From: Bacteroidales bacterium
GTDB taxonomy: Bacteria > Bacteroidota > Bacteroidia > Bacteroidales > ML635J-15
DNA length: 64,000 bases
Direction of reading: 5' to 3'
Assembly (NCBI GenBank): GCA_027858835.1
Contig: JAQIBY010000102.1
Span: forward strand, 1,918-65,917
Positions 1 to 13,081 of the stretch are shown in pieces. The notes beneath the pieces are model-generated. The model was given only the letters and a program-made list of their open reading frames with translations, searched no databases and was not told the origin of the DNA. The translations under genes and the position numbers were made by a program. Position 1 is the stretch's first letter; each line of letters opens with the position of its first letter.

Positions 1-1
1 G

Positions 2-328
2 CCTGAGTATATTGGTATGGCAGCCGCTGCGGCTATCAACAAATTTCTGGAACATTCCAATCTTTTTATTGGTGATATTATTGCCCAGGCAAAATCTGCA
101 TCGCAATTCCAACACCCACTAGTCGTTATGGCTTATGGAATCGATGGAATTGGTAAATCCGCTAAGGTTTATCTCGAAGATGCTGTTTCCGGATCTCAGT
201 ATGACAAAACAATCCAAAAATATTCCGGTGGAATTGCCATTACACCGCAAACAGGAGTTATGATTAAAGTTAATGCTGGTGAAAATCTTTCATTGACAAT
301 GAAATTGTCCGCAACCTGGACATTGTAA
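2..328 (+). CDS. C-terminal fragment of an abundant structural protein (capsid-like candidate); ORF is open to the window edge
   Basis: There is no stop between nt 2 and the ATG at 17. The C-terminus is beta-rich, and the strongest intrinsic terminator of the element follows. No family is recognisable by eye. Confidence 0.45.
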   Translation, partial: PEYIGMAAAAAINKFLEHSNLFIGDIIAQAKSASQFQHPLVVMAYGIDGIGKSAKVYLEDAVSGSQYDKTIQKYSGGIAITPQTGVMIKVNAGENLSLTMKLSATWTL

Positions 329-361
329 GTCGCAACTTTAAGTTTCCAATTACATGAATGA

Positions 362-399
362 AAGCCCAGCCCCGATTTTGGGATTGGGCTTTTTTTTTA
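362..399 (+). terminator. Rho-independent terminator
   Basis: AAGCCCA (362-368) pairs with TGGGCTT (385-391), with inner CCC/GGG pairs, followed by a T9 run. Confidence 0.7.
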
Positions 400-412
400 A
401 AAAAGCAACATT

Positions 413-991
413 ATGACACACGAGGAGTTAGTAACGAGAATGAAAACAGATCCGGCATTTGTCGTTTCGTTTATCATTCAAAATAATCCAAAACGAGTTT
501 ATGAAAATATGCTTGCAAATGGCATTGTCACTTCATTGAATGCTAATATAATGTATTCGGATTTAATGAAATTTGCGGCAAAAAAACCAGACACTGCAAT
601 TGCAATTTTAAATATTCCTATCCGGGAAACCGAAGAGCAAATGCACCTTACCGAAGCAGTTAAATCTGCCGGCATTTTTAATCCGGTTAGTTCTAAAAAT
701 TCAATTTATGATGACACGTTTAATCCAGATGATGTTTTTGATGAATATGAAGATCGGCCAGATGATCCCTCCTATTTTGAAGATGAAGAAACATCCGGGA
801 ACTGGAACTGGGATTGGATCGGAAATTTCTTTGGGGCCTTGGGTGGAGCTTTTCAAGCATTTGGACCCGGTCAACAGCCGCCACAAAATGAACCTGAAGA
901 CAGCAGTTCAAAGCCAAAATCAATGACAATCATTCTCATTGTCTTGTTAGTCGTTGCAATCATTGTCGGTATGATCTTCCTAAAAAAATAA
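413..991 (+). CDS. Tail-anchored membrane protein (soluble N-domain, acidic/Pro-rich linker, C-terminal TM)
   Basis: 192-aa ORF with a C-terminal hydrophobic helix MTIILIVLLVVAIIVGMIFL followed by KK. An acidic D/E/P stretch precedes it. Confidence 0.6.
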   Translation: MTHEELVTRMKTDPAFVVSFIIQNNPKRVYENMLANGIVTSLNANIMYSDLMKFAAKKPDTAIAILNIPIRETEEQMHLTEAVKSAGIFNPVSSKNSIYDDTFNPDDVFDEYEDRPDDPSYFEDEETSGNWNWDWIGNFFGALGGAFQAFGPGQQPPQNEPEDSSSKPKSMTIILIVLLVVAIIVGMIFLKK

Positions 992-994
992 GCC

Positions 995-1321
995 ATGAAA
1001 GAAATTTTGAAAAAATCAATACCTTATGTTTTAGTGCTTGCAGTACTTGGATTTGCTTATGCATTATATGATGCTTATAAAAAATCTCGCGACAAACAAG
1101 GCTGGATTAATGGCTTAAAACAATCATTGTCCTATTACAATGAAAACACAAATGAGTGGCGAACTGCGATCGGGTGGCAAGAAGAGCTCAATGAATTTGT
1201 TCGAAAGCAGGCGGCACTACCAAAATTTGAAGCTGCCACAATACCAGAAGTTGTTAGGACTAACATTGATTGGTCCTATAACACATCAAAACCATTAGAG
1301 CGAATATTCATCAAAGTTTAA
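995..1321 (+). CDS. Small membrane protein (N-terminal TM)
   Basis: 108-aa ORF starting 4 nt after the previous stop. The helix is IPYVLVLAVLGFAYALY. Confidence 0.6.
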   Translation: MKEILKKSIPYVLVLAVLGFAYALYDAYKKSRDKQGWINGLKQSLSYYNENTNEWRTAIGWQEELNEFVRKQAALPKFEAATIPEVVRTNIDWSYNTSKPLERIFIKV

Positions 1322-1337
1322 TTAATAATCTCTCATT

Positions 1338-1439
1338 ATGAAAATGAAAACAAGGACACCAGTTTTAGTCATTGCAGGAATTGCAATTGCAGCTGTAGCA
1401 GTATGGTATTTTTTCCTACGCGAAAAAGATACTGAGTAA
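1338..1439 (+). CDS. 33-aa single-TM mini-protein (below the ORF-track cutoff)
   Basis: ATG 1338 to TAA 1437-1439. It translates as MKMKTRTPVLVIAGIAIAAVAVWYFFLREKDTE and fills an otherwise empty gap in a tightly packed operon. Confidence 0.45.
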   Translation: MKMKTRTPVLVIAGIAIAAVAVWYFFLREKDTE

Positions 1440-1463
1440 TTAACCAAAAAAAAACAGTAGCTT

Positions 1464-1592
1464 ATGGAAGCAACAAACTTTTTAATGATCCTTGCCGGGA
1501 TCTTAATTGTCGGAATGTTTTACCTGGTCCTTAAAAAACCAGAAGTAAACGTTCAATTCACAAATCCTGAAACTGAAGATAGCGATGAATAA
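1464..1592 (+). CDS. 42-aa single-TM mini-protein (below the ORF-track cutoff)
   Basis: ATG 1464 to TAA 1590-1592. It translates as MEATNFLMILAGILIVGMFYLVLKKPEVNVQFTNPETEDSDE. Confidence 0.45.
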   Translation: MEATNFLMILAGILIVGMFYLVLKKPEVNVQFTNPETEDSDE

Positions 1593-1722
1593 TGAATTAC
1601 TGTCAACTCGTGTTAATGTAGTTCTCGAAAAAGAATCAATACTTTATCTAGCCGGCTCGTTGGCAGTTGCAGGAATTATAATTATTTTATTTTGGGGTAT
1701 CATTAAAAAAATGGCATCCTAA
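1585..1722 (+). CDS. 45-aa single-TM mini-protein (below the ORF-track cutoff)
   Basis: ATG 1585 overlaps the previous ORF end by 8 nt. It translates as MNNELLSTRVNVVLEKESILYLAGSLAVAGIIIILFWGIIKKMAS, with the stop at 1720-1722. Confidence 0.45.
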   Translation: MNNELLSTRVNVVLEKESILYLAGSLAVAGIIIILFWGIIKKMAS

Positions 1723-1740
1723 AGGGTGTCATTTTTTTTT
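1711..1740 (+). terminator. Rho-independent terminator or attenuator
   Basis: ATGGCATCC (1711-1719) pairs with GGGTGTCAT (1724-1732) using two G-U pairs, with a TAAA loop, followed by a T9 run. Confidence 0.5.
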
Positions 1741-1751
1741 AAAACTTGATT

Positions 1752-1997
1752 ATGGTAAAGGTAATTGATAGTACAACTGCAGGTAGTTTGCCAATTGGGG
1801 CGAAAAAAATATACATTCAAAATTTAAGCAAAAAGGATTCTGTTGTTTTGACATTTTTGAATTCGGCAAGTGATCATCAAATTTTGCAATTGCAACAAAA
1901 TGCAATTTTGAATTTTGAATACAATCAAAATTCTTATCCGGCAATGACATTTGCCTGTAATAATGATGCTAGAATTCAAATTATAGCTGTTTATTAA
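1752..1997 (+). CDS. Small soluble beta-rich protein (vertex/penton candidate)
   Basis: The ORF track starts at TTG 1746, but ATG 1752 is more likely. There is no TM, and alternating hydrophobic beta-like segments are present. It is one of only two non-membrane ORFs in the block. Confidence 0.5.
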   Translation: MVKVIDSTTAGSLPIGAKKIYIQNLSKKDSVVLTFLNSASDHQILQLQQNAILNFEYNQNSYPAMTFACNNDARIQIIAVY

Positions 1998-2008
1998 GAT
2001 TTAGAAAT

Positions 2009-3322
2009 ATGGGATTTGGAACTAGACAAAGCATAGATAGTATATTATTACGTAATGTAATGAGTGTTGATCCGTCATTAGAACAAAATGAGGCACAACA
2101 TTTATTCAAAACTTACGCGGCTGCAAAAAAGTACATATTAGATAACTTAGATCCAGCTAGTAACACAAATAAGTATTTAATAAGGCTACCAGCTGGGGAA
2201 ATAAATGCAGCTGTTGCCGGAACGGAAATTGTCGGTGAGGAAGGTTGCGTTCATTTGGAGGCAAATATAATTCTCAGCTGTAATGATGCTACGGTAGTGA
2301 CGTGTCCACTAAAAAGTAATGGTTTAGTCGCTGATTTAATGACAGAGGGATTTAGTTATCTTTTTGCGTTTTATATTAATGGTGGGATATTTAAATCTAT
2401 TGAAGGAACCGGCAATTTATTTTCATTTTCAAATTCTTTATTGTCAGGATTTAATTTAGATTCTTGTGGTTTGTACATGAATGATATAGTTGTTTCAGAA
2501 GGATTTTCAATTGATACATTAATGTTTTTATCTTATAATTCAACTTTCGAAGAATCTTTTAGTTTATCAATTTCTAAAGATGCATTTACAAATAGATTAA
2601 TTGGGTGTAATGGAGCAATTGAACTCGTAAATCCCTCAGATACTTCCGCATATGCGGAAATCGTAGTTTACAACAGTGAAATTATATATGTTAAAAATAA
2701 TGACACTTCATATTACTACAGCTTTGACTTTAAAAATTCAAATGTTTCTTTCGATGGTGAATTTAATTTAACAGTTTATGGAGACATTCATTCTCAATCA
2801 TCCATTATTAAAATAGAAGGCGATATTGTTTTCACTAAATTTGTTTACGATTATAATGGTACTATAACATCAAATGGGTCAAATCTAACATTTGAAAATT
2901 CTGCTTATCTTTTTAATCTTGAAATTATAGATGTTACTTTAAATCTCAATAATGCAGCAGCGATAATAAATGTAAGAGGATTGCTAACTGCCAATCTTTT
3001 TAATATTACTGCTGGCATATTGAGTATTAATAATCCAGAAAAAATCATTCAAATAGTTGCCGATGCAGCAAACTATGAGGTTCTTCCCGGAACTTTGCAA
3101 TTAAATGTAGCGAATACTCCTGTCAATGCGCAAACAATAGTATTAAAAGACTATATGAAAAGCCCTCAATTGAATTTATTTATTGCAGACACTGATGATG
3201 CCAGTATAAATAACATCACAATTGAAGATGGTTTGGGAAACACAATTTATACGATAAATGCAGCTCGTGGATATGTTAATATTACTTATTCAGAAGGATT
3301 AGCTGAATTTATTGCAAAATGA
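2009..3322 (+). CDS. Large soluble N/S/T/I-rich protein (spike or receptor-binding candidate)
   Basis: 437-aa ORF with no TM. Its composition is repetitive and beta-helix-like. It is the largest protein of the visible element. Confidence 0.55.
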   Translation: MGFGTRQSIDSILLRNVMSVDPSLEQNEAQHLFKTYAAAKKYILDNLDPASNTNKYLIRLPAGEINAAVAGTEIVGEEGCVHLEANIILSCNDATVVTCPLKSNGLVADLMTEGFSYLFAFYINGGIFKSIEGTGNLFSFSNSLLSGFNLDSCGLYMNDIVVSEGFSIDTLMFLSYNSTFEESFSLSISKDAFTNRLIGCNGAIELVNPSDTSAYAEIVVYNSEIIYVKNNDTSYYYSFDFKNSNVSFDGEFNLTVYGDIHSQSSIIKIEGDIVFTKFVYDYNGTITSNGSNLTFENSAYLFNLEIIDVTLNLNNAAAIINVRGLLTANLFNITAGILSINNPEKIIQIVADAANYEVLPGTLQLNVANTPVNAQTIVLKDYMKSPQLNLFIADTDDASINNITIEDGLGNTIYTINAARGYVNITYSEGLAEFIAK

Positions 3323-3340
3323 TAATTTAATAATAAAATA

Positions 3341-3592
3341 ATGCTAAACAGTCTATTCACAAACATATTAACACCTATTGCGATAATAGGCAACGTATTT
3401 GAAACCTTCACACAAGGCAATGTGCTTTCCGGCTTGCTAGCTTGTACTGTCGCTTTTCTTGTGATAATTTATTGGATCATCAGAATACAGCGCGAGTGGT
3501 GGCATCGATCAGATGAAAGAAAAGTTCGCATACGCAAAAAACCAAAAAAAACAATCAACAAAAAACAATCAACAATAAGCAATCAACAATAA
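3341..3592 (+). CDS. Membrane protein with a basic C-terminal tail that runs into heptad array A
   Basis: 83 aa with hydrophobic segments ILTPIAIIGNVF and LLACTVAFLVIIYWII. The stop TAA 3590-3592 lies inside a CAATAAG unit. Confidence 0.55.
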   Translation: MLNSLFTNILTPIAIIGNVFETFTQGNVLSGLLACTVAFLVIIYWIIRIQREWWHRSDERKVRIRKKPKKTINKKQSTISNQQ

Positions 3593-3631
3593 GCAATCAG
3601 CAATAAGCAATCAGCAATCAACAATCAACAA
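3552..3631 (+). repeat. Heptad iteron array A (about 11 units of CAAT[C/A]A[A/G])
   Basis: Units in order from 3552: CAATCAA, CAAAAAA, CAATCAA, CAATAAG, CAATCAA, CAATAAG, CAATCAG, CAATAAG, CAATCAG, CAATCAA, CAATCAA. Then CAA and ATG at 3632. Confidence 0.95.
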
Positions 3632-4174
3632 ATGACAAAAAAACATTACATATTTATCTTAATATTAATCTCCTGGCTATTTGGGTTAGGGCTCGGTTCT
3701 TATCTTGGTGAAAAACATGCCAAAACAGAAACCGAAACAATTTATTTAGATAAAATAGTAATTGAAAAAGATACGCTGTTAATTACAGATACAGTACAAA
3801 TGCCAATCCCGGCACGAGTTGATACAGTTCAGGTATTAAGAGAATTTCACACAAAGCGAATAATTCGAGATACCGTAATAAACAACGACACAGTATTAAT
3901 TGTCATTCGTGACACCGTATATCAAAACAAAATAATTAATCGTAGAGTTGACTATCAAAATTTAATGCCAGTTCCAGTTATTTTTAAAACTGCAAATACA
4001 TTTAGTGCCGGCTTGAATTTAAACACAATTAACGGTTTTGGATATGGCCCGGCAATAAATTACAATCACCAAAAATTAACCTGTGGCTTAACCGCAGACC
4101 TTAAAAATAAAATCATTTTAGGAACAATAACAATCAAAATATTTTCCAATCAACAATCAACAATCAACAATTAG
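3632..4174 (+). CDS. Membrane-anchored protein (N-terminal TM) bracketed by arrays A and B
   Basis: 180 aa with helix YIFILILISWLFGLGLGSYLG. The ATG directly follows array A. The stop TAG 4172-4174 lies inside a CAATTAG unit of array B. Confidence 0.6.
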   Translation: MTKKHYIFILILISWLFGLGLGSYLGEKHAKTETETIYLDKIVIEKDTLLITDTVQMPIPARVDTVQVLREFHTKRIIRDTVINNDTVLIVIRDTVYQNKIINRRVDYQNLMPVPVIFKTANTFSAGLNLNTINGFGYGPAINYNHQKLTCGLTADLKNKIILGTITIKIFSNQQSTINN

Positions 4175-4255
4175 CAATCAGCAATCAACAATCAACAATA
4201 AGCAATAAGCAATCAACAATTAGCAATTAGCAATCAACAATCAGCAATCAGCAAA
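4147..4255 (+). repeat. Heptad iteron array B (15 units)
   Basis: Exact 7-bp register from 4147 to 4251: CAATCAA x3, CAATTAG, CAATCAG, CAATCAA x2, CAATAAG x2, CAATCAA, CAATTAG x2, CAATCAA, CAATCAG x2. Then CAAA and ATG at 4256. Confidence 0.95.
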
Positions 4256-4348
4256 ATGGACACTAAAAAAATAATCGAAATACTAACAATAATCACAAGC
4301 TTATTAATAGTCATAAGCTATGTAATGAAATTTTTTAGAAATGAATAA
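4256..4348 (+). CDS. 30-aa single-TM mini-protein (below the ORF-track cutoff)
   Basis: The ATG immediately follows array B. It translates as MDTKKIIEILTIITSLLIVISYVMKFFRNE. The stop overlaps the next ATG (4341). Confidence 0.45.
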   Translation: MDTKKIIEILTIITSLLIVISYVMKFFRNE

Positions 4349-4718
4349 AATAAATTTCAAAATAAAAAAACCGGTACGATTTGCGATTCTTGCGATACTT
4401 GCAGTTTTTGTAATTGCCTTAATTGCATCACCAAAATTCCGGGATAAAATAAAACAGATCTTGCACGACTTGTTATTTAATCCACTGGGGTTTGATCCGT
4501 TTGGAATGGCTGAATCAAGTACTGACAACAACGACAATGGAGACAACTCAGATGATGAATCCGGGGGAGATGATGACACGATAAATCCCGGTGATAATTG
4601 GGGAGATGCAGGCGAACAAACCCCATGTGATCCTGATTTAATTGTGAGTGAATATTATGTTGGTGAAACTTTAGTTCATGAAAATGAATGTGGTGGTATT
4701 GTAGTATTCGCAAATTAA
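4341..4718 (+). CDS. Membrane-anchored protein with an acidic D/N/G-rich ectodomain
   Basis: 125 aa with helix VRFAILAILAVFVIALIAS followed by the run DNNDNGDNSDDESGGDDD. Confidence 0.6.
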   Translation: MNKINFKIKKPVRFAILAILAVFVIALIASPKFRDKIKQILHDLLFNPLGFDPFGMAESSTDNNDNGDNSDDESGGDDDTINPGDNWGDAGEQTPCDPDLIVSEYYVGETLVHENECGGIVVFAN

Positions 4719-4730
4719 AATTAATGAATT

Positions 4731-5117
4731 ATGAAAGCAAAGTATTGGCAAGTTTTAACAGTGTTTTTAGGTGTTTTAATATCCTGGTTCGTATTTCGGA
4801 GGTATAAGGTGTATTACTTCTATTCAGTTTTGACAGGTAGTGAAACATTAAGTTTTTTCTTTAAGCCTGTTGATTTTAATTCATTTAAAGAAATTCCAAA
4901 TAATTTCAAAAATGGTGAAATAGTAACAGTTGAGGAAAACGCAACAATACCTGATGGAATTAAAAGCAAAATAGGAAGTGGTTCTGAAAGATATAAACAT
5001 TTAATTATTGCTTTTTCTGCAAGTAATTACTTTAAGTTTTATAAGGAGCTTGAGGAATATTTCAACACGAAAAAACTATTGAAGTTTAACTTTAAATTTG
5101 AAGGTGGTTATGAGTAA
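4731..5117 (+). CDS. Membrane-anchored protein (N-terminal TM)
   Basis: 128 aa with helix WQVLTVFLGVLISWFVF. Confidence 0.55.
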   Translation: MKAKYWQVLTVFLGVLISWFVFRRYKVYYFYSVLTGSETLSFFFKPVDFNSFKEIPNNFKNGEIVTVEENATIPDGIKSKIGSGSERYKHLIIAFSASNYFKFYKELEEYFNTKKLLKFNFKFEGGYE

Positions 5118-5289
5118 AACAGGATCATTTTACCTTATGATGGCTGGAACATTGTTCTTGCCGGCGGTCGCTTATCTTGTGACAACGCAATTTAAGTTAG
5201 ACAAAAACTTACAGCTTCTAATTGTCATCTTAGCACTAGCTTTAGGTGGCGCATGGAGCGCAGGAATAATTGAAAAAACGGAGGATTAA
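5098..5289 (+). CDS. Two-TM mini-protein
   Basis: 63 aa with helices FYLMMAGTLFLPAVAYLV and LLIVILALALGGAWSAGII. It overlaps the previous ORF by 20 nt. Confidence 0.55.
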   Translation: MKVVMSKTGSFYLMMAGTLFLPAVAYLVTTQFKLDKNLQLLIVILALALGGAWSAGIIEKTED

Positions 5290-5291
5290 AT

Positions 5292-5918
5292 ATGGCAGGA
5301 TTTACTATAAGAGACAGTGATTTTAAAGGTCCTTTTTTTTGGACTGTTTATCGTAATAACTTTCTTAGCAATTTTCAGAAATATTATGAAGAAAATGACA
5401 AACTAAAAACATATGAGTGGTTTAATTCAGCAAAACAAAAAGCTGATGAATTAGGTGGAAAATGGGAGGTTAAAAAAATGAACGCGGCTAATGCAGCCAG
5501 TTACTCAGGAGGTACTGAATGGTCTGTTGATTTGGTGCCTGCAATGACATGGGATGAATACAGGGCTTATCCACTTTCTTGGAAAGCTAAAAGCATAATA
5601 AAGTTATTGCATGATAATGGATTTAATTGGAATACTTATCATGCTGATTTACGACACGCGTTCAATAATTGGTCTTATGCCGGAGTTCAGTATCCAATTG
5701 ACAAATCAAATGTTGAAAATTATATAGCATCACTTGAAGATTTATGGCAAGGCATATATGAGGATGAACCAGAAAATGTAAATGCTGGTTTTCCGGATCC
5801 TGTCGACCCGCCTGGTGGAAATGATCCATCACTTTCAAACATTTTTGCAATTAAAAATTTAGTCATTGTCGGTGCAATATTTCTGGTATTGATTTTTCTA
5901 ATTTATTTATACGCTTAA
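5292..5918 (+). CDS. Tail-anchored membrane protein (soluble W/Y-rich N-domain, acidic/Pro linker, C-terminal TM)
   Basis: 208 aa. The linker EDEPENVNAGFPDPVDPPGGNDP is followed by helix LVIVGAIFLVLIFLIYLYA at the extreme C-terminus. Confidence 0.6.
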   Translation: MAGFTIRDSDFKGPFFWTVYRNNFLSNFQKYYEENDKLKTYEWFNSAKQKADELGGKWEVKKMNAANAASYSGGTEWSVDLVPAMTWDEYRAYPLSWKAKSIIKLLHDNGFNWNTYHADLRHAFNNWSYAGVQYPIDKSNVENYIASLEDLWQGIYEDEPENVNAGFPDPVDPPGGNDPSLSNIFAIKNLVIVGAIFLVLIFLIYLYA

Positions 5919-5929
5919 AAAAATAAGAT

Positions 5930-6148
5930 ATGGTGGTACTAGCAGGATTAACAGCCGCACTCGGTGGAGTTTTTAAATTTCTTAATTACAGACAACAGAT
6001 GGACGCTGCACAAACAGCCGCTGAATACGAATTGCTTGCAAGGGCACAACAGCAGCAAACTCTGAAAATAATCATCATGGGATCCGTAATGGTAATGATG
6101 ATTGTTGTAATTGGTTGGGTATTAACATCAAAAATGAAAAATAAATGA
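5930..6148 (+). CDS. Two-TM mini-protein
   Basis: 72 aa with helices VVLAGLTAALGGVF and IIIMGSVMVMMIVVIGWVL. Its stop overlaps the next ATG. Confidence 0.55.
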   Translation: MVVLAGLTAALGGVFKFLNYRQQMDAAQTAAEYELLARAQQQQTLKIIIMGSVMVMMIVVIGWVLTSKMKNK

Positions 6149-6966
6149 AAAAGATTTTAAAATTTATTTTGCCGGTTATTATTCTGGCAATTGTCATTAT
6201 TGCGAAAATAAGCATTAGTGACAATGAGGCATTGATTGTTAACAGGCAATCAGATCCGAATTTACGTGTATTAGTCGTTGCCGGTCATGGTGAACAAATT
6301 AATTCATCATATCAAACAGCTGGTAAGCAATCCCCGACATGGGAAAACGGATTAAAAATTTACGAGGGCATCTCTAATAAGGATCTGGCTGAAAATTTAG
6401 TGATAAAATTAAAACATGCCGGCATTGATGCGCAAATCATAAATCCGGAGCTTCGAGATATAAGTTTACAAGCTCGCATAAATCGTATAAATACAATATA
6501 TAGTTACGATAAGCGATCAATAGCAATTTTCCTGCATCACAACGCACAAGCTTACAATAAAACAGCTGATTATTTTGATAAACAAAACTTATACGGCTGG
6601 ACATCAGCAGAGATAGGAGGTGCAACCGGCACGGAAATTTTCACAAGTAAAGGATTTACAAAAGCCGATCAGATTGCAAAATACATAGGAAATTCAATCA
6701 GCAATCAACAATCAGCAATTAGCAATCTAAAATTCCGCGGATTAAAAGAAGCGAATTTCTTTGTTTTAAAATACACATCTTGTCCTGCAGCATTGCTTGA
6801 ATTTGGCTTTATGACAACAAAGGTTCCTGATTGTATGGTGATCTCTGATTCGTTACACAGAGAAATTTATTTGCAATCAATAGTCTCCGGATTAAAACAA
6901 TATTCAAACTCAATCAGCAATCAACAATTAGCAATCAACAATCAACAATTAACAATTAACAATTAA
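6145..6966 (+). CDS. Membrane-anchored N-acetylmuramoyl-L-alanine amidase (Amidase_3-like), carrying array C internally and array D at its 3' end
   Basis: N-terminal helix ILPVIILAIVIIAKI. The amidase-3 landmarks are VVAGHGE, AIFLHHNA and ANFFVLKYTSCPAALLEFGFMT. The stop TAA 6964-6966 lies inside a CAATTAA unit. Confidence 0.75.
   Translation: MKKILKFILPVIILAIVIIAKISISDNEALIVNRQSDPNLRVLVVAGHGEQINSSYQTAGKQSPTWENGLKIYEGISNKDLAENLVIKLKHAGIDAQIINPELRDISLQARINRINTIYSYDKRSIAIFLHHNAQAYNKTADYFDKQNLYGWTSAEIGGATGTEIFTSKGFTKADQIAKYIGNSISNQQSAISNLKFRGLKEANFFVLKYTSCPAALLEFGFMTTKVPDCMVISDSLHREIYLQSIVSGLKQYSNSISNQQLAINNQQLTINN
6695..6729 (+). repeat. Heptad iteron array C (5 units), inside the amidase coding sequence
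   Basis: The units are CAATCAG, CAATCAA, CAATCAG, CAATTAG, CAATCTA. They are read through in frame as SISNQQSAISNL. Confidence 0.9.
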
Positions 6967-6984
6967 CAATTAACACTCAACAAT
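6911..6984 (+). repeat. Heptad iteron array D (10 units)
   Basis: The units are CAATCAG, CAATCAA, CAATTAG, CAATCAA x2, CAATTAA x4, CACTCAA. Then CAAT and ATG at 6985. Confidence 0.95.
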
Positions 6985-7275
6985 ATGAACCAAATAATTC
7001 ATCAATCAGGCACAGGAAAAGCAACCTATGAAGGAGATCTTCATCCAGATGCTGTACTTATTACCGAAGGTGAAGACGGCCGGGAATACGAGGTTGGACC
7101 AGTTTTTATTATTGACGGTCTTGATGATTACGTACCTCCTATAGATCCTGATGATCAAGAGCCAGGCTCTGATGAAGATGAACCTGCTGCTAAAATTTCA
7201 CCAACTATGATTCTTATAGGTGGTGGTATTTTGCTTGCACTAGGTGTTGCAATTTATTTCATTACAAAAAAATAA
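6985..7275 (+). CDS. Tail-anchored membrane protein (small N-domain, acidic/Pro linker, C-terminal TM)
   Basis: 96 aa. The ATG directly follows array D. The linker PPIDPDDQEPGSDEDEP is followed by helix MILIGGGILLALGVAIYFIT. Confidence 0.6.
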   Translation: MNQIIHQSGTGKATYEGDLHPDAVLITEGEDGREYEVGPVFIIDGLDDYVPPIDPDDQEPGSDEDEPAAKISPTMILIGGGILLALGVAIYFITKK

Positions 7276-7341
7276 TGAAATAATGGAAAACAGAACCACA
7301 AATAAAAGCGAAAATAAATGAGATATTAAAAACAGAGACTT

Positions 7342-7779
7342 ATGAAACTCATGAACATGCAAAAGTCATATATCGTCGGCTTTGTGCTTATTGTAATTAT
7401 TATTGCAGTGGCATACTTTTCGGGTAAGAGCAAAGGATCAGAAGATTACCCTGAATTTCCTGTACCTGATGATACTCCAGGTAGTACAATCAATTTAGAT
7501 CAGGCAAAAGTGCAACGTATTGCGGTAGGTTTGCATAATGATTTGGATAGTTTCTTTTTATTTGAACGTTACAATACTTCGCTTTGGCAGGAATTTGCAA
7601 GTAGTTCTGATACTGAGTTTGTTGCTATTTACAATTATTTCAATGATAAATGGTATGCAGACAAAAGTAAAACGCTGCGCGAAAGGATTGAGTCGCGGCC
7701 AATCTCATGGTTTAGTGGCATATTGCGTACAACTATAGCTATGATCCTACAACGTTTAACACGCTTAAATTTAGTGTAA
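7342..7779 (+). CDS. Membrane-anchored protein (N-terminal TM)
   Basis: 145 aa with helix YIVGFVLIVIIIAVAYFSG. Its stop overlaps the next ATG. Confidence 0.55.
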   Translation: MKLMNMQKSYIVGFVLIVIIIAVAYFSGKSKGSEDYPEFPVPDDTPGSTINLDQAKVQRIAVGLHNDLDSFFLFERYNTSLWQEFASSSDTEFVAIYNYFNDKWYADKSKTLRERIESRPISWFSGILRTTIAMILQRLTRLNLV

Positions 7780-8135
7780 TGGATAAAAAAAACTACATAT
7801 TCATTGGTATTGCAGTTGTCTTAATTGCTGTAGTTTATTTAAGGTTCCTGAATAACACCGGTTCATCTAGCAATAATCAACCTAGCAATGATCAACCTGA
7901 CAATAATCAAACTTGTACCAATCCAACTACATGGGTTACAACTTCATTTCCATTACAACTAGGAGTTGCTAACAACTATGTAAAATTGCTTCAATTGAAT
8001 TTAAACGACAATTTTAATGCTGGGCTTAATCCTGATAAAAAATTTGGCTGCAATACCCAAGCTGCATTAATGCAGTACACCGGTAAATCTAAAATTAGAT
8101 CAGCACTAGAACTTTACATAATTATTGATTCCTAA
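7779..8135 (+). CDS. Membrane-anchored peptidoglycan-binding-domain protein (PG_binding_1-like)
   Basis: 118 aa with helix YIFIGIAVVLIAVVYL and a Q/N/P linker. The C-terminal segment VKLLQLNLN...PDKKFGCNTQAALMQY resembles the PG_binding_1 pattern (V..LQ..L ... DG.FG..T..A...FQ). Confidence 0.5.
   Translation: MDKKNYIFIGIAVVLIAVVYLRFLNNTGSSSNNQPSNDQPDNNQTCTNPTTWVTTSFPLQLGVANNYVKLLQLNLNDNFNAGLNPDKKFGCNTQAALMQYTGKSKIRSALELYIIIDS
7871..7915 (+). repeat. 15-bp x3 in-frame tandem repeat in the linker of the PG-binding protein
   Basis: The units are CAATAATCAACCTAG, CAATGATCAACCTGA and CAATAATCAAACTTG. They encode NNQPS/NDQPD/NNQTC. The CAAT..TCAA core echoes the heptad motif. Confidence 0.8.
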
Positions 8136-8163
8136 TTATATTTATGAAAAATACAAAGAAATA

Positions 8164-8781
8164 ATGAAAGCTGGAACACGTGAAATATTAATAGCCATAG
8201 GCATTAGCATAGCTTTTGCCGTGGCTTACTATTTTTGGTATTCCAGAAAATTGCATCCATTATTGCGCAGGAAAACAACCGGCACCGAAAAAGATGAATA
8301 CATTAAAAAGCTTGAAAGTGTATCACGCAATTTGCGTATTAATCCTAATGCCTTGTGGCTTGTTATCAATTCAGAAAGCCGGCACAATCCCGGAGCCATA
8401 AATCCGTACAACGGGGCAACCGGTTTAATTCAATTTGTGAATTCAACCGCGCAAACACTCGGCACAAGCTTCAGCGCATTACGGCAAATGTCGCGAATCG
8501 ATCAGCTGGATTATGTTCAGTCATATTACAAAATGTTCAAGCGCGCCAGCAATTATTCCGATTTGTATTTAACAACCTTTTATCCCTATGCTTTAGGCAA
8601 GCCGGATAGTTACATATTTGGATCAGAAGTTTCACCGGCCAGAGTTGCCATAATAACAGCTCAAAACCCATTTGATGAAAATGGAGATGGTGAAATAACC
8701 ATGAAAGAATTTAAAACATTTGCCAGGAAACAAATTGTGGCAGGTGTAGTTCCAAAATGGTTTGAATATTTATTAATGTAA
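8164..8781 (+). CDS. Membrane-anchored lytic transglycosylase (SLT domain)
   Basis: The ORF track begins at TTG 8125, but in-frame ATG 8164 avoids overlap and starts MKAGTREILIAIGISIAFAVAYYFWY (TM). The SLT signature is INSESRHNPGAINPYNGATGLIQF (E-S ... G-L-x-Q). Confidence 0.7.
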   Translation: MKAGTREILIAIGISIAFAVAYYFWYSRKLHPLLRRKTTGTEKDEYIKKLESVSRNLRINPNALWLVINSESRHNPGAINPYNGATGLIQFVNSTAQTLGTSFSALRQMSRIDQLDYVQSYYKMFKRASNYSDLYLTTFYPYALGKPDSYIFGSEVSPARVAIITAQNPFDENGDGEITMKEFKTFARKQIVAGVVPKWFEYLLM

Positions 8782-8841
8782 ACGAAATGGAAATAAGAAA
8801 TGAAAGGCAAATAAGCCTACAATTTTAATAAACAATTTTAT

Positions 8842-9198
8842 ATGGAAAAATATAAATTAATTAAAAATACATTTGTATATAAAAGCAACCCACATCCAAC
8901 AGGAGATGCAGACTTAACAATAAAAGTTCGTAGCATTGCAAAAGATACAACTGTTAACGTTTCTGCTGAAGGTAATATTATTAGATCTTGGTCATCAACA
9001 CCAATATTGTATATTGTTGATAGCATTGGCATTCCCGAATTTATTCACAAGTCAGATGTTGTTCTTATGGCATCAGGTTCACAAGATGACAATGCCCACG
9101 TTGGAACAGAGAGTGTTCCATTAATGGATAAGCTCATTGCTAAAATCAGAACTTATGTATTGGAAGGCGAACCAAAACAATCAAAGTTAAACTTTTAA
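8842..9198 (+). CDS. Soluble hypothetical protein
   Basis: 118-aa ORF with no TM and no recognisable motif. Confidence 0.5.
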   Translation: MEKYKLIKNTFVYKSNPHPTGDADLTIKVRSIAKDTTVNVSAEGNIIRSWSSTPILYIVDSIGIPEFIHKSDVVLMASGSQDDNAHVGTESVPLMDKLIAKIRTYVLEGEPKQSKLNF

Positions 9199-9208
9199 AG
9201 AATTCATC

Positions 9209-9382
9209 ATGAAAAAACAAAGTGAAAACCATTATGATATTGCCTATAAAACTAAAAGTGGTAGAATGATGGTTGCAAAAAATATTTCTGGTATCAATGC
9301 AAATGCTGCAAAGGCAAAGCTAAAAAAGCAAATGCGCAAATCATCTAGTTTCGACAGTATAATTACTGCTGTTAAGGTGTAG
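9209..9382 (+). CDS. 57-aa basic soluble mini-protein (below the ORF-track cutoff); small DNA-binding candidate
   Basis: ATG 9209 to TAG 9380-9382. It translates as MKKQSENHYDIAYKTKSGRMMVAKNISGINANAAKAKLKKQMRKSSSFDSIITAVKV. It is K/R-rich with no TM. Confidence 0.4.
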   Translation: MKKQSENHYDIAYKTKSGRMMVAKNISGINANAAKAKLKKQMRKSSSFDSIITAVKV

Positions 9383-9424
9383 AACAATAAAAATTACTAT
9401 ATTTATAAACTAAAATTAATTCTT

Positions 9425-9748
9425 ATGAGCAAATACAAAGTCAGCTGGTTGATATTGCTACCAGAAAAAGGAAAAGCAACAAAAAGAGAGGTTTCTATTA
9501 TCAACAAAAAATGTCCTTATCATGGGTTTGGCATTATTGGACTGGATAAATATATGATAGGAGGGCATTTCCCAAGTAAAAAAGAAGCTGAAAAATGCTT
9601 GCCTAAAATTAAAGGATTGGGAAAGCCTTATCGTGCATACATTATAACAGATGCTCAGTTTGGTAGTATGAAGATTGATCATGCAACAGGTTTGAATAGT
9701 CTATTTATTACAGGTAGGCAAAAAAAAGCAAGTAAAATTATCAAATAA
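9425..9748 (+). CDS. Hypothetical protein
   Basis: 107-aa basic ORF and the last gene of the rightward operon. No recognisable motif. Confidence 0.5.
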   Translation: MSKYKVSWLILLPEKGKATKREVSIINKKCPYHGFGIIGLDKYMIGGHFPSKKEAEKCLPKIKGLGKPYRAYIITDAQFGSMKIDHATGLNSLFITGRQKKASKIIK

Positions 9749-9754
9749 AAAAAA

Positions 9755-9817
9755 GTCCACATGATCGGTTTTTGTTGTGACAACATTTGAAAGCAAATCA
9801 CAATTGATCATGTGGAC
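9755..9817 (-). terminator. Perfect 12-bp inverted repeat with a nested hairpin; probable terminator between convergent operons
   Basis: GTCCACATGATC (9755-9766) pairs with GATCATGTGGAC (9806-9817). The 39-nt loop contains TGTTG-TGA-CAACA. The A8 run on the + side gives a T8 run after the stem on the - strand. Confidence 0.5.
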
Positions 9818-9926
9818 GCTGCAAGTGTAATACTTTTATTTTTGTTTTACAAGTTTTCTAGTGTAAAATGATTGAATTCGGTTGTAAAATCAATATTTTC
9901 CTTCCGGGTTATTACATTAATTGTTA

Positions 9927-10346
9927 TCAGTCAACAGCATAAATTGAATTTTTACGGCGGATATAATCATTTAGAATCGCTTCGTAGTTATCAACTCTCA
10001 TACTAGATCGACCTGTCAAATAGTCTGAAATCGTTGCCTGTCTAATATTAACTTTTTTTGCAATCGCTGCTTGATGCTCTAATGCCATTGACTGTTTTAA
10101 TAATTCACGCATATCAATTTTGTTTTGACATGTCGTAAGATTAAAAACAAATTTAATCAAAGGGCTGTCAATTATAGGTACCGGGGATTCTAGTTTTTTA
10201 TTTGCATTAGTCATCGCGAGTAAGTCCAGGGACAAATTCAAAACAGCAACTAACTCATGATCATCACGAGAAAATTCAGCCCCGTGATCACGTAAACCTT
10301 CAAGCTGTATTATAGCTTCTGATAATTGTTCAAATATTTCCATCAT
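9927..10346 (-). CDS. XRE-family helix-turn-helix regulator (HTH at the C-terminus)
   Basis: The segment HQAAIAKKVNIRQATISDYLTGRSSMRVDNYEAIL fits the Cro/C1-type HTH pattern. The gene lies in the lysogeny module next to the integrase. Confidence 0.65.
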   Translation of the reverse strand: MMEIFEQLSEAIIQLEGLRDHGAEFSRDDHELVAVLNLSLDLLAMTNANKKLESPVPIIDSPLIKFVFNLTTCQNKIDMRELLKQSMALEHQAAIAKKVNIRQATISDYLTGRSSMRVDNYEAILNDYIRRKNSIYAVD

Positions 10347-10393
10347 TTAAAATTTTGTGCCGGACTTATCCCGAAGGTGCCAGCGGTTAATGT

Positions 10394-10768
10394 TTAGTCC
10401 TCAAATAATTCGAGGTTTAAAATAGTATCTTCAATGGACTCCTCTATGTGCTGTGTATAACCACAAGCATCAAAGTCCATTTCTTCAATATTGTCATAAC
10501 CAAATTCCTCTGGACTTGGCGTTTCATGATCTTTAATTGTGTAAAAGCAATTGTCGCTTAGTTGCTGCTGTCCTAAGTAGTACAGATAATCAACAGTTAA
10601 TTCGTTTGTTTCTTCGTCAATCTTAAAGAAAAATGTCCTGTTAGCTAAGTCGCCACTTAAAGTAGTAGGCATTATTTCTAATGTTTTTTCAACTAATTCA
10701 TCTTTTCTTGTTTTTAGAATTTTTAAAGTTTCCATAATATTGTTTTTTTTAATGTTACAAAATTCCAT
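10394..10768 (-). CDS. Highly acidic small protein, first gene of the leftward operon
   Basis: 124 aa, or 113 aa from the internal ATG at 10735 (METLKIL). The C-terminal half is very D/E-rich (EEFGYDNIEEMDFDACGYTQHIEESIEDTILNLELFED). Confidence 0.5.
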   Translation of the reverse strand: MEFCNIKKNNIMETLKILKTRKDELVEKTLEIMPTTLSGDLANRTFFFKIDEETNELTVDYLYYLGQQQLSDNCFYTIKDHETPSPEEFGYDNIEEMDFDACGYTQHIEESIEDTILNLELFED

Positions 10769-10797
10769 TTGGTACGATTGATATCAGATTACAAATA

Positions 10798-10846
10798 TAC
10801 GGTATTGCGTAATGAAAACCAAATAAATTTTACGGTTTAGCGTAAT
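10798..10846. promoter_or_regulatory. Two operator-like 16-bp direct repeats in the divergent promoter region
   Basis: TACGGTATTGCGTAAT (10798-10813) and TACGGTTTAGCGTAAT (10831-10846) match at 14 of 16 positions. Each holds a TACG/CGTA half-palindrome. The centre-to-centre spacing is 33 bp. Confidence 0.45.
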
Positions 10847-10986
10847 TTGAAAGGATTCTAAATAAAAAAATACTGCAAAAACTGGCATGAGACTGACATA
10901 AAGCAAGAAATGAAATTTGTCAATAAGATTGGTTTGTAGTCTGGCAGGGAAATTGTATATTTACAGCAAATCAAATCGAACAAACT

Positions 10987-11484
10987 ATGAAAACAATCAA
11001 GATTTTAACCGTATTTGTCATTTTAATGGCTTTATTTTCATCATGCAAGGATGAGTATGTAGAGGTTGAAAAACCTAAAATTTACCGCTTTGAATACGAA
11101 GCAGAGGACTGGGAGTGGGAGTATAATGATGATAAAACTGTGCAATTTCACGAAGTCCGAAATTCAGTTACCGCAAATGTGCGAGCTAATTATTTAATAT
11201 TTTGCTATGTCAAAGCAAGCGGATCAATGTATCAAATGCCTTTTTCAACGAATTCACTTAGTTATTATTTCGTTTTTGAAGATTACGACATGGGTTTAAT
11301 AAAACAAACATTAGACGGCTATGTATGGACTCAAAAAAGTGATGAAGATTTTGTAATATACATTATGGATCCCGAATACACTGAAAATCTCAATGTTCAA
11401 TCTGAAAAATCAGTGATTGAATTTTTATCAAAAGAATTTCCACAGGATGTTGAAATCTTAAATGAAGTGAGTTTAGTCAATTAA
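10987..11484 (+). CDS. Lipoprotein of unknown function (prophage moron candidate)
   Basis: The signal peptide plus lipobox is MKTIKILTVFVILMALFSSC. The gene has its own promoter region and converges on the integrase with a 12-nt overlap. Confidence 0.6.
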   Translation: MKTIKILTVFVILMALFSSCKDEYVEVEKPKIYRFEYEAEDWEWEYNDDKTVQFHEVRNSVTANVRANYLIFCYVKASGSMYQMPFSTNSLSYYFVFEDYDMGLIKQTLDGYVWTQKSDEDFVIYIMDPEYTENLNVQSEKSVIEFLSKEFPQDVEILNEVSLVN

Positions 11485-12579
11485 AGATATTTGATCTTTT
11501 AAAGTCAAATCAACTAATCGGGAGTACACTAGCGTACTCTCGATTTTTTTGTGACCTAAAAGGTTTTTTAGCGCAAACAAATTCCCACCTCTATTCAGGA
11601 AATAAACAGAAAATGAATGCCTGGCCGTTTTCGTACTTATCGGCTTGTCAATTCCAGCAGCTTTAGCAATTTTCTTTAATTCCCGGTTAATATATTGATC
11701 TGAAATGTTTTGAAAAATAGAACTTTTAGTATAAACATCCGGTACATATTTTATAGCTCTATTTGCGATTGGAATATTAAGTGATTTGCTTGTTTTTTGC
11801 ATTTGTACATTAATCACTTTTGCATCAATCATTTGTCCTGTAACTTTGTTCCAGTCGCTGTAACGCAGGCCCGTAAAACAAAAGAACAAAAACATTTGTA
11901 GTATGTCTCGGTGAAAACCGGCCGGCATGTTTACAAAAAATGTTTCAAGTGATTCCAATTCCAAAGGTGTTAAGTAAACCGGATCTTTATCAATCTCATG
12001 AATTTTATAATCACTAAACGGATTTTTCCTTAAATAACCTTTTCGGATTGCCAGGCCACAATACTTTTTCAGGAAACGAAATTTCGTGACAATAGCATTA
12101 TGTGAGTTTCCCCGGTCCTGTAAAAATGTATAAAGTTCATTAATCCAGCTGTAGGTTATTTTTGAAAAATAAACCGGTTTATCATACTCATGTATAACAT
12201 TCAAATTAGACTTGTGGCGTTTAATTGTTCCCCAGGCATAATGATGACTATTTTCAATATGATCTTTATTCATTAAGAATTCAACTGTTTTTGTGTTGTC
12301 ATTAAAAAGCCTAGTAAATATTTCAGAAATTGAAAGTGATAATTCATTAACTTCAATATCTGCCTGAATTTGATTAAGTTCAAGTTGTATTTTTTGCAAC
12401 TTCAAATTATTAATTGTTGTTAATTTTGATTTTCCTATGAATTTTTGTTGGTCCTGGTTCCAGTCATCCGGGTTAATATCTGAAACAATTTTTTGCTGTG
12501 ATCTTTTGCTATTAATTGAAACAGCCAGTAGTATATTACTATGCTTGCCGCGAGTGTCTATTCTGAATTTATATTTCAT
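11473..12579 (-). CDS. int: Tyrosine-type site-specific integrase
   Basis: Catalytic-domain landmarks are CFTGLRYSDW, ARHSFSVYF and LLGHKKIESTLVYSRL (R...H-x-x-R...H...Y). The gene is adjacent to the tRNA 3' end. Confidence 0.85.
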   Translation of the reverse strand: MKYKFRIDTRGKHSNILLAVSINSKRSQQKIVSDINPDDWNQDQQKFIGKSKLTTINNLKLQKIQLELNQIQADIEVNELSLSISEIFTRLFNDNTKTVEFLMNKDHIENSHHYAWGTIKRHKSNLNVIHEYDKPVYFSKITYSWINELYTFLQDRGNSHNAIVTKFRFLKKYCGLAIRKGYLRKNPFSDYKIHEIDKDPVYLTPLELESLETFFVNMPAGFHRDILQMFLFFCFTGLRYSDWNKVTGQMIDAKVINVQMQKTSKSLNIPIANRAIKYVPDVYTKSSIFQNISDQYINRELKKIAKAAGIDKPISTKTARHSFSVYFLNRGGNLFALKNLLGHKKIESTLVYSRLVDLTLKDQISLID

Positions 12580-12586
12580 AGGTTCG

Positions 12587-12662
12587 GTGTCGTTTCAATA
12601 TTTAGCTTGTTGCAGACTTGTTGCAGTATTGTTGCAAAAACCGTCTTATTTAGTGTCGTTTC
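12587..12662. promoter_or_regulatory. Candidate arm-type recombinase/RDF binding sites in the att-proximal arm
   Basis: TTGTTGCA occurs three times at exact 11-bp phasing (12607, 12618, 12629). GTGTCGTTTC occurs twice (12587-12596 and 12653-12662), 66 bp apart. Confidence 0.45.
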
Positions 12663-12696
12663 GTTGTCATTGGGAACGCTTGGCTTCTAACTAAAA

Positions 12697-12739
12697 CACT
12701 GAAAACCATATAATTTAATGATTTTCAGTGCTTTCAGTG
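12697..12739. repeat. Inverted plus direct TTTCAGTG repeats abutting the tRNA 3' end (candidate core-type att sites)
   Basis: CACTGAAAA (12697-12705) pairs with TTTTCAGTG (12722-12730), followed by CTTTCAGTG (12731-12739) directly before the tRNA discriminator position. Confidence 0.45.
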
Positions 12740-12814
12740 TGATCCAGCCAGGGCTCGAACCTGGGACCTACGGCTTAGAAGGCCGTTGCTCTAATCCAAC
12801 TGAGCTACTAGACC
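12740..12814 (-). tRNA. tRNA-Arg (anticodon TCT)
   Basis: The reverse complement folds as a cloverleaf. The acceptor GGTCTAG/CTGGATC has two G-U pairs. The D-arm is GCTCAGTTGGATTAGAGC. The anticodon stem ACGGC/GCCGT carries the loop CTTCTAA. The T-arm is CCAGGTTCGAGCCCTGG. CCA is not encoded. Confidence 0.9.
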
Positions 12815-12829
12815 AGTCTTTTCGGGCTG

Positions 12830-12859
12830 CAAAAATAGCTATTTTTCATGAAATCCAAA
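12830..12859 (-). promoter_or_regulatory. Putative Bacteroidota-type promoter of tRNA-Arg
   Basis: On the minus strand, TTTG is followed by an 18-nt spacer and then TATTTTTG. This matches the phylum -33 TTTG / -7 TAnnTTTG consensus about 16 nt upstream of the tRNA 5' end. Confidence 0.45.
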
Positions 12860-13081
12860 CCTGTTCAACGAGTTTTTTTCAAAATAAATTGACAATCGCA
12901 TTTATTTTGAACTAAAAACATTGGCAACACAGGTTATACACAAACCGCTGTTCAAAATTAACAGAACTGGCATCAGGAAAGATAAGCACATGGTTCTTAA
13001 CATATCCGGGTTGATAAAACCCTTAAAATGCAATGGTTTAAACCACTTTCTAATGTATTTTTAGTCAAAAATTATCACATT

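Follow-up and report, generated by a model that had tools for sequence, protein, structure and literature searches.

Heptamer repeats are reportedly over-represented among the simple-sequence repeats of bacteria, possibly as a result of polymerase slippage (Rehm 2015, PMC4692102), and one of them forms the system closest to the one described here. TAACTGA direct repeats are known from marine Beggiatoaceae, from some Cyanobacteria, and from a few Bacteroidetes (MacGregor 2015, PMC4679880). Most sets are oriented forward to the downstream gene, with the largest class ending 1 nt before the start codon, and in fourteen sets the repeats reach into the end of the upstream open reading frame (ORF), where forward translation runs into stops (PMC4679880). 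Shine-Dalgarno (SD) sites are rare at these repeats, the RNA is predicted to be unstructured, and the corresponding junctions of relatives are repeat-free; the author suggested that the repeats function in translation and named S1, cold-shock proteins, and CsrA as possible binders (PMC4679880). Here we describe arrays of another heptamer, CAATNAR, carried by a temperate phage of Bacteroidales, at least ~15 kb long, whose right-hand part lies in a 64,000-nt stretch of a Bacteroidales genome (GenBank assembly GCA_027858835.1, contig JAQIBY010000102.1, positions 1,918 to 65,917 of the forward strand). We refer to this whole stretch as the window and count positions from its first letter. The reading that we favor, with moderate confidence, is that the arrays are hypervariable repeats driven by slippage that expanded where gene junctions were tight and have come to act as leaders of the downstream genes, and that the stop codons they present in several frames are a by-product.

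The window contains four heptamer arrays (A to D), all on the plus strand and in the sense orientation (Table 1). Their core units are CAATCAA and CAATCAG; the variants change the C at position 5 to A or T, with A or G at position 7, giving CAATAAG, CAATTAG, and CAATTAA. Tandem Repeats Finder (TRF) returned a period of 7, with 10.6 to 15.4 copies in arrays A, B, and D and 4.7 copies in C, and TRF and the unit tables agree in describing tandem direct 7-nt repeats with occasional related variant units. Three consecutive CAATNAR units matched 29 times in the window, every match lying inside arrays A to D, and 0 times in 100 dinucleotide-preserving shuffles. No array is present within the 51 kb of host chromosome DNA of the window, whereas the phage itself has six, all sense-oriented: two metagenome contigs of this phage both carry two more arrays, E and F, upstream of the window's first base. 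The arrays were found in three independent assemblies. An Rfam scan of window positions 1-13000 gave no match on them.

Three of the arrays supply the stop codon of the upstream gene and then continue to a start codon. In array A, the TAA at 3590-3592 that ends ORF 3341-3592 falls within a CAATAAG unit and is followed by five more units and then CAA-ATG at 3632. In array B, the TAG at 4172-4174 that ends ORF 3632-4174 lies within a CAATTAG unit, with eleven more units and then CAAA-ATG at 4256. The amidase ORF contains array C and then extends 18 codons into array D, where its TAA (6964-6966) is part of a CAATTAA unit; two more units follow, then CAAT-ATG at 6985. The stop-to-start distances are 39 nt (A), 81 nt (B), and 18 nt (D). 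Translation of the 5′ part of each array gives a C-terminal tail, ...KKQSTISNQQ for A (with ...QSTISNQQ from the array), ...SNQQSTINN for B, and ...NSISNQQLAINNQQLTINN for D, the array-encoded portion being 8-9 residues from A and B and 18-19 from D. An earlier note on this DNA had reported these coordinates, unit counts, stops within units, ATG registers, and the three tails, and all of them held on recheck. Arrays A, B, D, and E run forward and end 0-4 nt upstream of an ATG, the start at B being putative. The 30-aa ORF at 4256 was skipped by gene callers on both metagenome contigs; it resembles the other small hydrophobic ORFs of this phage, and its putative start is plausible.

Table 1. Heptamer arrays, adjoining genes, and landmarks of the phage (window coordinates unless a contig is named)
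Feature	Position	Strand	Description
Array A	3552-3631	+	11 units (CAATCAA/CAAAAAA/CAATAAG/CAATCAG), then CAA
Array B	4147-4255	+	15 units, then CAAA; 81-nt spacer to ATG 4256
Array C	6695-6729	+	5 units, in frame within amidase ORF; encodes NSISNQQSAISN
Array D	6911-6984	+	10 units, then CAAT; stop TAA 6964-6966; next ATG 6985
Array E	L121 893-927 = L249 127-161	sense	five units, ACCT, then ATG of 72-aa ORF
Array F	L121 ~1503-1552 = L249 737-786	sense	in frame in 262-aa ORF; encodes QQSAIINQQSTINNQQPTIT
ORF, 83 aa	3341-3592	+	hydrophobic, basic tail; last residues and stop from array A
ORF, 180 aa	3632-4174	+	N-terminal hydrophobic segment; ATG in register with last unit of array A (CAAATGA)
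Putative ORF, 30 aa	4256-4348	+	hydrophobic; ATG closes array B (CAAAATG); overlaps ORF 4341-4718
N-acetylmuramoyl-L-alanine amidase (Amidase_3), 273 aa	6145-6966	+	PF01520, E 2.3e-16
ORF, 96 aa	6985-7275	+	acidic N-terminal part, C-terminal hydrophobic segment; ATG in register with array D (CAATATG)
SLT-domain protein	8125-8781		Pfam
Tyrosine integrase, Bacteroidota-type	11473-12579	-	Arm-DNA-bind_5, SAM_5, and catalytic domains
tRNA-Arg(TCT)	12739-12814	-	adjoins integrase

The resemblance to the TAACTGA system is extensive. Both consist of intergenic tandem 7-nt direct repeats that run forward, lie near a start, lack an SD site, and are predicted to be unstructured, and in both, variant heptamers interrupt the arrays, occasional copies lie within ORFs, and relatives without repeats exist. 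TAACTGA arrays are longer in Bacteroidetes, as are those of the phage. The two systems differ in the unit itself, as no rotation of CAATCAR equals TAACTGA, and in that the core unit of the phage is stop-free, with TAA and TAG arising in its variants only. The phage arrays reach 10-15 units where TAACTGA sets mostly have 2-6, and they sit in a prophage, with none seen in the 51 kb of host chromosome that the window covers, whereas TAACTGA repeats are scattered across the whole genome. Unlike TAACTGA, they also fill whole intercistronic spacers, encode tails of 8-19 residues, and show documented unit-number polymorphism. By analogy, then, the architecture is one already described for TAACTGA, and we assign the CAATCAR arrays to that poorly understood class; what this system adds is a new motif, its occurrence in a phage, arrays long enough to constitute entire intercistronic spacers and protein tails, and direct evidence of unit-number change.

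Other described heptamers are more distant. Heterocystous cyanobacteria have the STRR repeats, Xanthomonas has GGGAATC, and Nostoc has GGGGA(T/C)T (PMC4692102). These are likewise tandem heptamers, found preferentially between genes; they vary extensively in length and sequence between close relatives, a slippage origin has been proposed for them, and they form inverted pairs, as do CAATCAR arrays of other genomes. They differ in being G-rich (quadruplex-forming) or of other sequence and chromosomal, with no systematic abutment to starts reported, whereas the phage arrays are A/C-rich and unstructured.

The evidence for change in unit number comes from the two metagenome contigs, L121 (JGI 3300051639) and L249 (JGI 3300051640), which are metagenome consensus assemblies of this phage at ~99% identity. 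Across the 10.7 kb compared, 42 substitutions separate L249 from the window, 0 of them in arrays. Of the three indels, one of 9 nt lies in ORF 413-991, and the other two lengthen array A by 28 nt and array D by 7 nt. The first of the array changes is a duplication of four units that brings array A to 15 units and its spacer from 39 to 67 nt; the second adds one CAATTAA unit to array D and lengthens that spacer from 18 to 25 nt. Stop-to-start distances in L249 are 67, 81, and 25 nt for A, B, and D. Because both array changes come after the stop in use, the L249 proteins are unchanged and only the spacers are longer. In L121, array A has 13 units in a rearranged order and 64 nt of upstream coding sequence has been lost, which leaves the upstream protein (ORF 3341-3592) at 57 aa, compared with 83 aa in L249 and the window; its stop is again a TAA within an array unit, CACTAAG. 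The three phage copies have the same arrays B and C, and the neighboring ORFs are intact in all of them. The arrays are hot spots of whole-unit change between near-identical phage copies, and because unit number differs between copies, the stop-to-start distance is not fixed. That gain or loss of a unit should alter the spacer or the tail and leave the next ORF unharmed had been anticipated in the earlier note, and the natural variants of both L249 and L121 show exactly this.

We also considered read-through fusion of the flanking proteins, since the ORF pairs at A, B, and D share a frame (with stops at 3590, 4172/4199, and 6964). Arrays A and D hold one in-frame stop each, yet this frame relation is lost in L249 and L121 through their unit changes, so the shared frame is probably a coincidence and the candidate was dropped. 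Outside the arrays, the substitutions that distinguish L249 from the window cluster in short patches at 697-717, 5361-5377, 5480-5521, and 5643-5683, in ORFs 413-991 and 5292-5918. One of these patches adjoins a 9-nt indel; recombination or local diversification is a possible source.

Changes in unit number raise the question of phase variation, in which the gain or loss of one unit in array C (amidase) or array F (262-aa protein) would switch the gene; because 7 is not a multiple of 3, a one-unit change there would shift the frame. The model would be NeuO of the E. coli K1 prophage CUS-3, whose repeat is AAGACTC and in which three units correspond to a 7-residue peptide repeat. NeuO has been described as a prophage gene with heptanucleotide tandem repeats of variable unit number (PMC13001214), a precedent for such repeats in a prophage, and unit changes occur in this phage as well. 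The NeuO repeats, however, lie in the 5′ coding region and form an on/off switch, whereas the variable arrays of the phage are intercistronic. We found no unit-number alleles that switch frame: arrays C and F are identical in every copy carrying them, and all observed variation is confined to non-coding parts or C-terminal tails. Array C, moreover, has only 5 heterogeneous units, and an off-switch for a lysis amidase brings no obvious benefit. Phase variation strikes us as very improbable.

Comparison with relatives indicates where the arrays have been added. Homologues of the amidase (41-54% protein identity) stop 2-10 aa past a conserved Y(S/N)N, and in the alignment, array D starts exactly at the natural C terminus of the phage amidase (...YSN), adding 18 codons relative to the homologues. 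Array C stands in for a variable stretch of ~11 aa that the homologues have between conserved blocks (+3 aa), and array F is an insertion of ~13 residues in a variable loop relative to homologues of the 262-aa protein. At the junctions of the amidase relatives L245-L247 and L248, as well as of L250, a relative via the 262-aa protein, genes overlap or are separated by short gaps, and these contigs show no 7-nt periodicity at all. The existence of homologous junctions without arrays is what the earlier note had named as grounds for rejecting a coupling role; such junctions exist for the amidase, but the flanking genes of its relatives are not detectably homologous to those of the window, and the comparison is therefore partial. 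The relatives without arrays point to a recent, lineage-specific acquisition of the arrays, grown in junctions that are tight in the relatives.

As RNA, the arrays are predicted to have almost no structure in the sense direction. The minimum free energies (MFE) of A, B, and D were -1.6, -2.8, and 0.0 kcal/mol for the sense strand and -5.0, -11.5, and -9.2 kcal/mol for the antisense strand, compared with means of -11.1, -16.5, and -9.7 kcal/mol for random window pieces of the same lengths, 0/300 of which were at -1 or higher. From -40 to +20, the three array-led genes have MFE values of -1.1 to -1.6 against a mean of -4.5 for 23 phage genes and rank with the least structured. ATG, GTG, and TTG are all absent from the arrays ahead of the true start, and the 30 nt of leader that precede the start hold 0-3 G, with no SD-like motif between repeat and start. 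The leader was already described as G-poor in the earlier note; to this we add its predicted lack of structure. SD-like motifs occur in 2/41 host genes, as expected for Bacteroidia. In Flavobacterium johnsoniae, low structure, A at positions -3, -6, -12, and -13, and a scarcity of AUG around the start tune initiation (PMC6847099). The leader formed by array D has A at 4/4 of these positions, that of array B at 3/4, and that of array A at 1/4. Judged by these features, the arrays are compatible with initiation in this host and may possibly be favorable to it.

A low-structure, G-poor likeness extends from the A-rich initiation regions of Bacteroidia to the tobacco mosaic virus (TMV) omega leader. 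That leader is described as G-poor and CAA-rich, with (CAA)n and ACAAUUAC repeats, and as supporting SD-independent translation by bacterial ribosomes (PMC13577412). It shares no sequence homology with the phage arrays and is the 5′-terminal leader of a plant virus, not an intercistronic element, and the function of the phage arrays is a predicted one.

The strong asymmetry between sense and antisense RNA structure also bears on whether the arrays might act as DNA, either as heptad iterons bound by a protein or as recombination hot spots for module shuffling. The omega protein of plasmid pSM19035 is a ribbon-helix-helix (RHH) repressor that binds 7-bp heptads, WATCACW, with which the rotated phage unit AATCARC presumably agrees at 5/7 positions. 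Three units make 21 bp, or two helical turns, the arrays flank ORFan genes, and the 64-nt deletion in L121 falls at the boundary of array A. Yet a Pfam scan of 20 phage ORFs found no RHH domain or other candidate binder, the nearest being one weak HTH_3 match in ORF 9927-10346. The arrays, moreover, are direct repeats on the coding strand, located at starts or in ORFs and not at promoters, an arrangement unlike that of RHH operators or centromeres, whose heptads occur at promoters in both direct and inverted orientation, and the RNA asymmetry between strands speaks against a role at the DNA level. We give such a role very little credence.

Arrays A, B, and D present stop codons in all three plus-strand frames; array C has stops only in the two unused frames, leaving the amidase frame open. 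The earlier note had taken the arrays for multi-frame stop pads, and the stops in three frames are indeed there. An explanation built on them would be a dedicated device coupling termination to reinitiation, composed of stop pad and leader, in which unit number tunes both tail and coupling. Such a device would be well served by a spacer that is unstructured and free of AUG before the true start, which would suit 70S scanning or re-initiation, by natural unit changes that spare both ORFs, and by gene junctions free of terminator-like sites. The other arrays and the spacing do not support it. Array E, at the 3′ end of a 156-nt intergenic gap, abuts a start without supplying a stop, as the upstream ORF ends 117 nt earlier, and C and F are in-frame coding insertions with no in-frame stop and no start after them. 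The distances at A, B, and D are long (18-81 nt) compared with classical coupling and variable between copies (39 versus 67 and 18 versus 25 nt), and related amidase genes have overlapping, array-free junctions. In addition, the units that carry stops differ from the stop-free core by one AT-ward base change, in an AT-rich genome; stops in several frames follow from these variants and need no separate selection. We regard a dedicated coupling device as distinctly unlikely.

The heptamer is not restricted to this phage. The 18-mer CAATCAGCAATCAACAAT, which is common to all four window arrays, occurs in the genome collection at no fewer than 120 loci (at least L125-L244), compared with ~17 expected by chance in uniform sequence, and in only four IMG/VR contigs. 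The loci listed span many phyla, with many in Acidobacteriaceae and Ca. Sulfotelmatobacter, and include Anaerolineales, Verrucomicrobiota, Planctomycetota, Saprospiraceae, Hymenobacteraceae, Flavobacteriales, and Prevotella. Among the matches listed, the arrays are short (3-15 units) and nearly always intergenic, several genomes have 2-3 loci, and arrays within ORFs are sense-oriented in 24/24, although gene calls at these loci are crude (ORF length plus third-position GC) and all such counts are indicative only. Neighboring units at these loci include CAATCGG, TAATCAG, and CCATCAG, and some loci are inverted pairs, that is, hairpins. An Rfam scan of 16 array-bearing loci placed no family on the arrays, and a search of one literature library for these CAATCAR array sequences gave no match.

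In IMG/VR, a search with (CAATNAR)x4 returned mostly unrelated homogeneous microsatellites (CAATAAA, CAATTAA) on AT-rich and giant-virus contigs, none of the contigs having genes in common with this phage. One contig, L112, seemed to offer another phage whose array runs up to an ATG and was rejected: that ATG opens just a 7-codon ORF, and the other array of L112 is half of a hairpin upstream of an SD site. Eight further viral contigs of ~4-11 kb and GC 0.41-0.46 (L075, L071, L008, L088, L092, L093, L097, and L011) carry heterogeneous heptamer arrays (CAATGAG/CAATTAA/CAATTAG/CAATGAA) at several sites each and share no genes with this phage. Of these, only L075 was examined closely: one of its arrays is upstream of an SD site and another beside its own inverted copy.

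The occurrence of the CAATCAR unit in many phyla and in both orientations would suit neutral or selfish simple-sequence repeats that expand where they are harmless and have no effect on expression. The whole-unit polymorphism, the relatives without arrays, the Q/N/S/T-rich loop insertions within ORFs and C-terminal tails, and the general excess of heptamers in bacteria, possibly from slippage (PMC4692102), are all in keeping with that explanation. What it accounts for poorly is placement. All four intergenic phage arrays end 0-4 nt before an ATG, which random placement would rarely achieve in the 156-nt gap of array E, and six of the six arrays are in the sense orientation, the unstructured one. 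The start-adjacent placement also recurs at independent chromosomal loci of low-GC Bacteroidota, where the distance from the end of the forward array to the ATG is 0 nt in L211 and L149, -1 nt in L146, 3 nt in L233, and 7 nt in L157. Purely neutral repeats are in our view unlikely, if less so than a dedicated coupling device.

Slippage-driven repeats that have come to serve as leaders would reconcile these observations in the following way. Gene junctions that were formerly tight or overlapping would have acquired the heptamer, which then would have grown and shrunk by replication slippage. The arrays take up the entire spacer between the flanking genes: their 5′ part reads as a Q/S/T/I/N tail as far as the first in-frame TAA or TAG of a variant unit, and their 3′ part reaches the next ATG. 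Selection would preserve the downstream ATG and N terminus, hold the arrays within ORFs in frame and stop-free, and tolerate Q/S/T/I/N tails. The pattern of a stop inside and an ATG at the end would then reflect the places where growth of such a repeat is possible and tolerated, and not a stop pad built for the purpose. The working part would be the sense RNA, as an unstructured, A-rich, G-poor, AUG-free, and SD-independent leader whose exact length is uncritical, most likely permissive or enhancing for the downstream genes and possibly acting via ribosomal protein S1. Low structure, upstream adenines, and scarcity of AUG are features on which the efficiency of initiation in Bacteroidia depends.

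Several observations weigh against this account. In high-GC bacteria, 38/126 listed arrays are reversed and abut the 3′ end of a gene, where the unit CTGATTG supplies TGA, and only 10 of the same 126 arrays run forward within 30 nt of a start; the association with starts is not universal. Within the phage, the leader formed by array A has C at -3 and -6, and other genes have equally A-rich leaders without arrays, so the arrays are not required for initiation here. The differences in unit number between assemblies could partly be effects of assembly or population consensus, and the invariant arrays B and C say nothing on tolerance to change. Finally, we infer the leader role from sequence properties alone.

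A bolder proposal would treat the CAATCAR arrays as a cross-phylum class of SD-independent leaders that recruit ribosomes, for example via S1, and that the phage uses as length-tunable modules for stopping and loading, with slippage varying the expression of membrane and lysis genes. We think this improbable and offer it as speculation.

The start-proximal heptamer repeat class is extended to a new motif and to a phage, and near-identical genomes show directly that the arrays alter in whole units and can overwrite protein ends and surface loops. In Bacteroidia, whose ribosomes ignore the SD sequence, the selection of start sites on polycistronic phage mRNAs is still being worked out, and initiation regions built from one unstructured 7-nt unit would be a natural test system for leader length, adenine placement, and structure, to whose usefulness the natural unit-number variants add. 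Interest would rise were the arrays found to promote or adjust initiation by Bacteroidia ribosomes; if they are merely tolerated products of slippage, they are a clean example of repeats reshaping protein termini, and little more.

The arrays lie in a phage block that occupies window positions 1 to ~12.7 kb, the right-hand part of the integrated element, and consists of small, mostly hydrophobic same-strand ORFs without known families. The integrase and tRNA-Arg(TCT) region is likely the right prophage end and attachment site; contig L249 terminates within this tRNA gene. The closely spaced same-strand genes are probably co-transcribed. Between 3300 and 7300, the gene junctions contain no terminator-like site, with three matches all within ORFs, and because the junctions lack such sites, one transcript across this region is consistent with the data. 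A scan for sigma-70-type promoters and terminators gave counts at chance level; Bacteroidia use a different promoter type.

The phage (window 1-11500 and upstream) consists almost wholly of ORFans, with no relatives in INPHARED or IMG/VR. ORF 3632-4174 matched only itself among 5.8 billion proteins, ten phage ORFs had no family in PHROGs, and the phage DNA had no match in the INPHARED phage collection. Searches of IMG/VR and JGI metagenomes with a 437-aa phage protein, together with a 27-mer DNA metagenome scan, likewise gave no match. A small protein encoded upstream of the window (L121 130-321) matches the crAss001_48-related family PF21825.

Two other tandem repeats were noted in the window. 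At 7867-7910, within ORF 7779-8135, 2.9 copies of a 15-nt repeat, CTAGCAATAATCAAC, encode NNQPS/NDQPD/NNQ; the DNA is similar to the heptamer units (CAATAAT, CAATGAT), yet the period is 15. On the minus strand, the gene for ribosomal protein S1 (59171-61441) encodes a long K/E/A-rich C-terminal extension, and at 59318-59454, it contains 27-nt tandem repeats in which EETPKAEAN is encoded three to four times.

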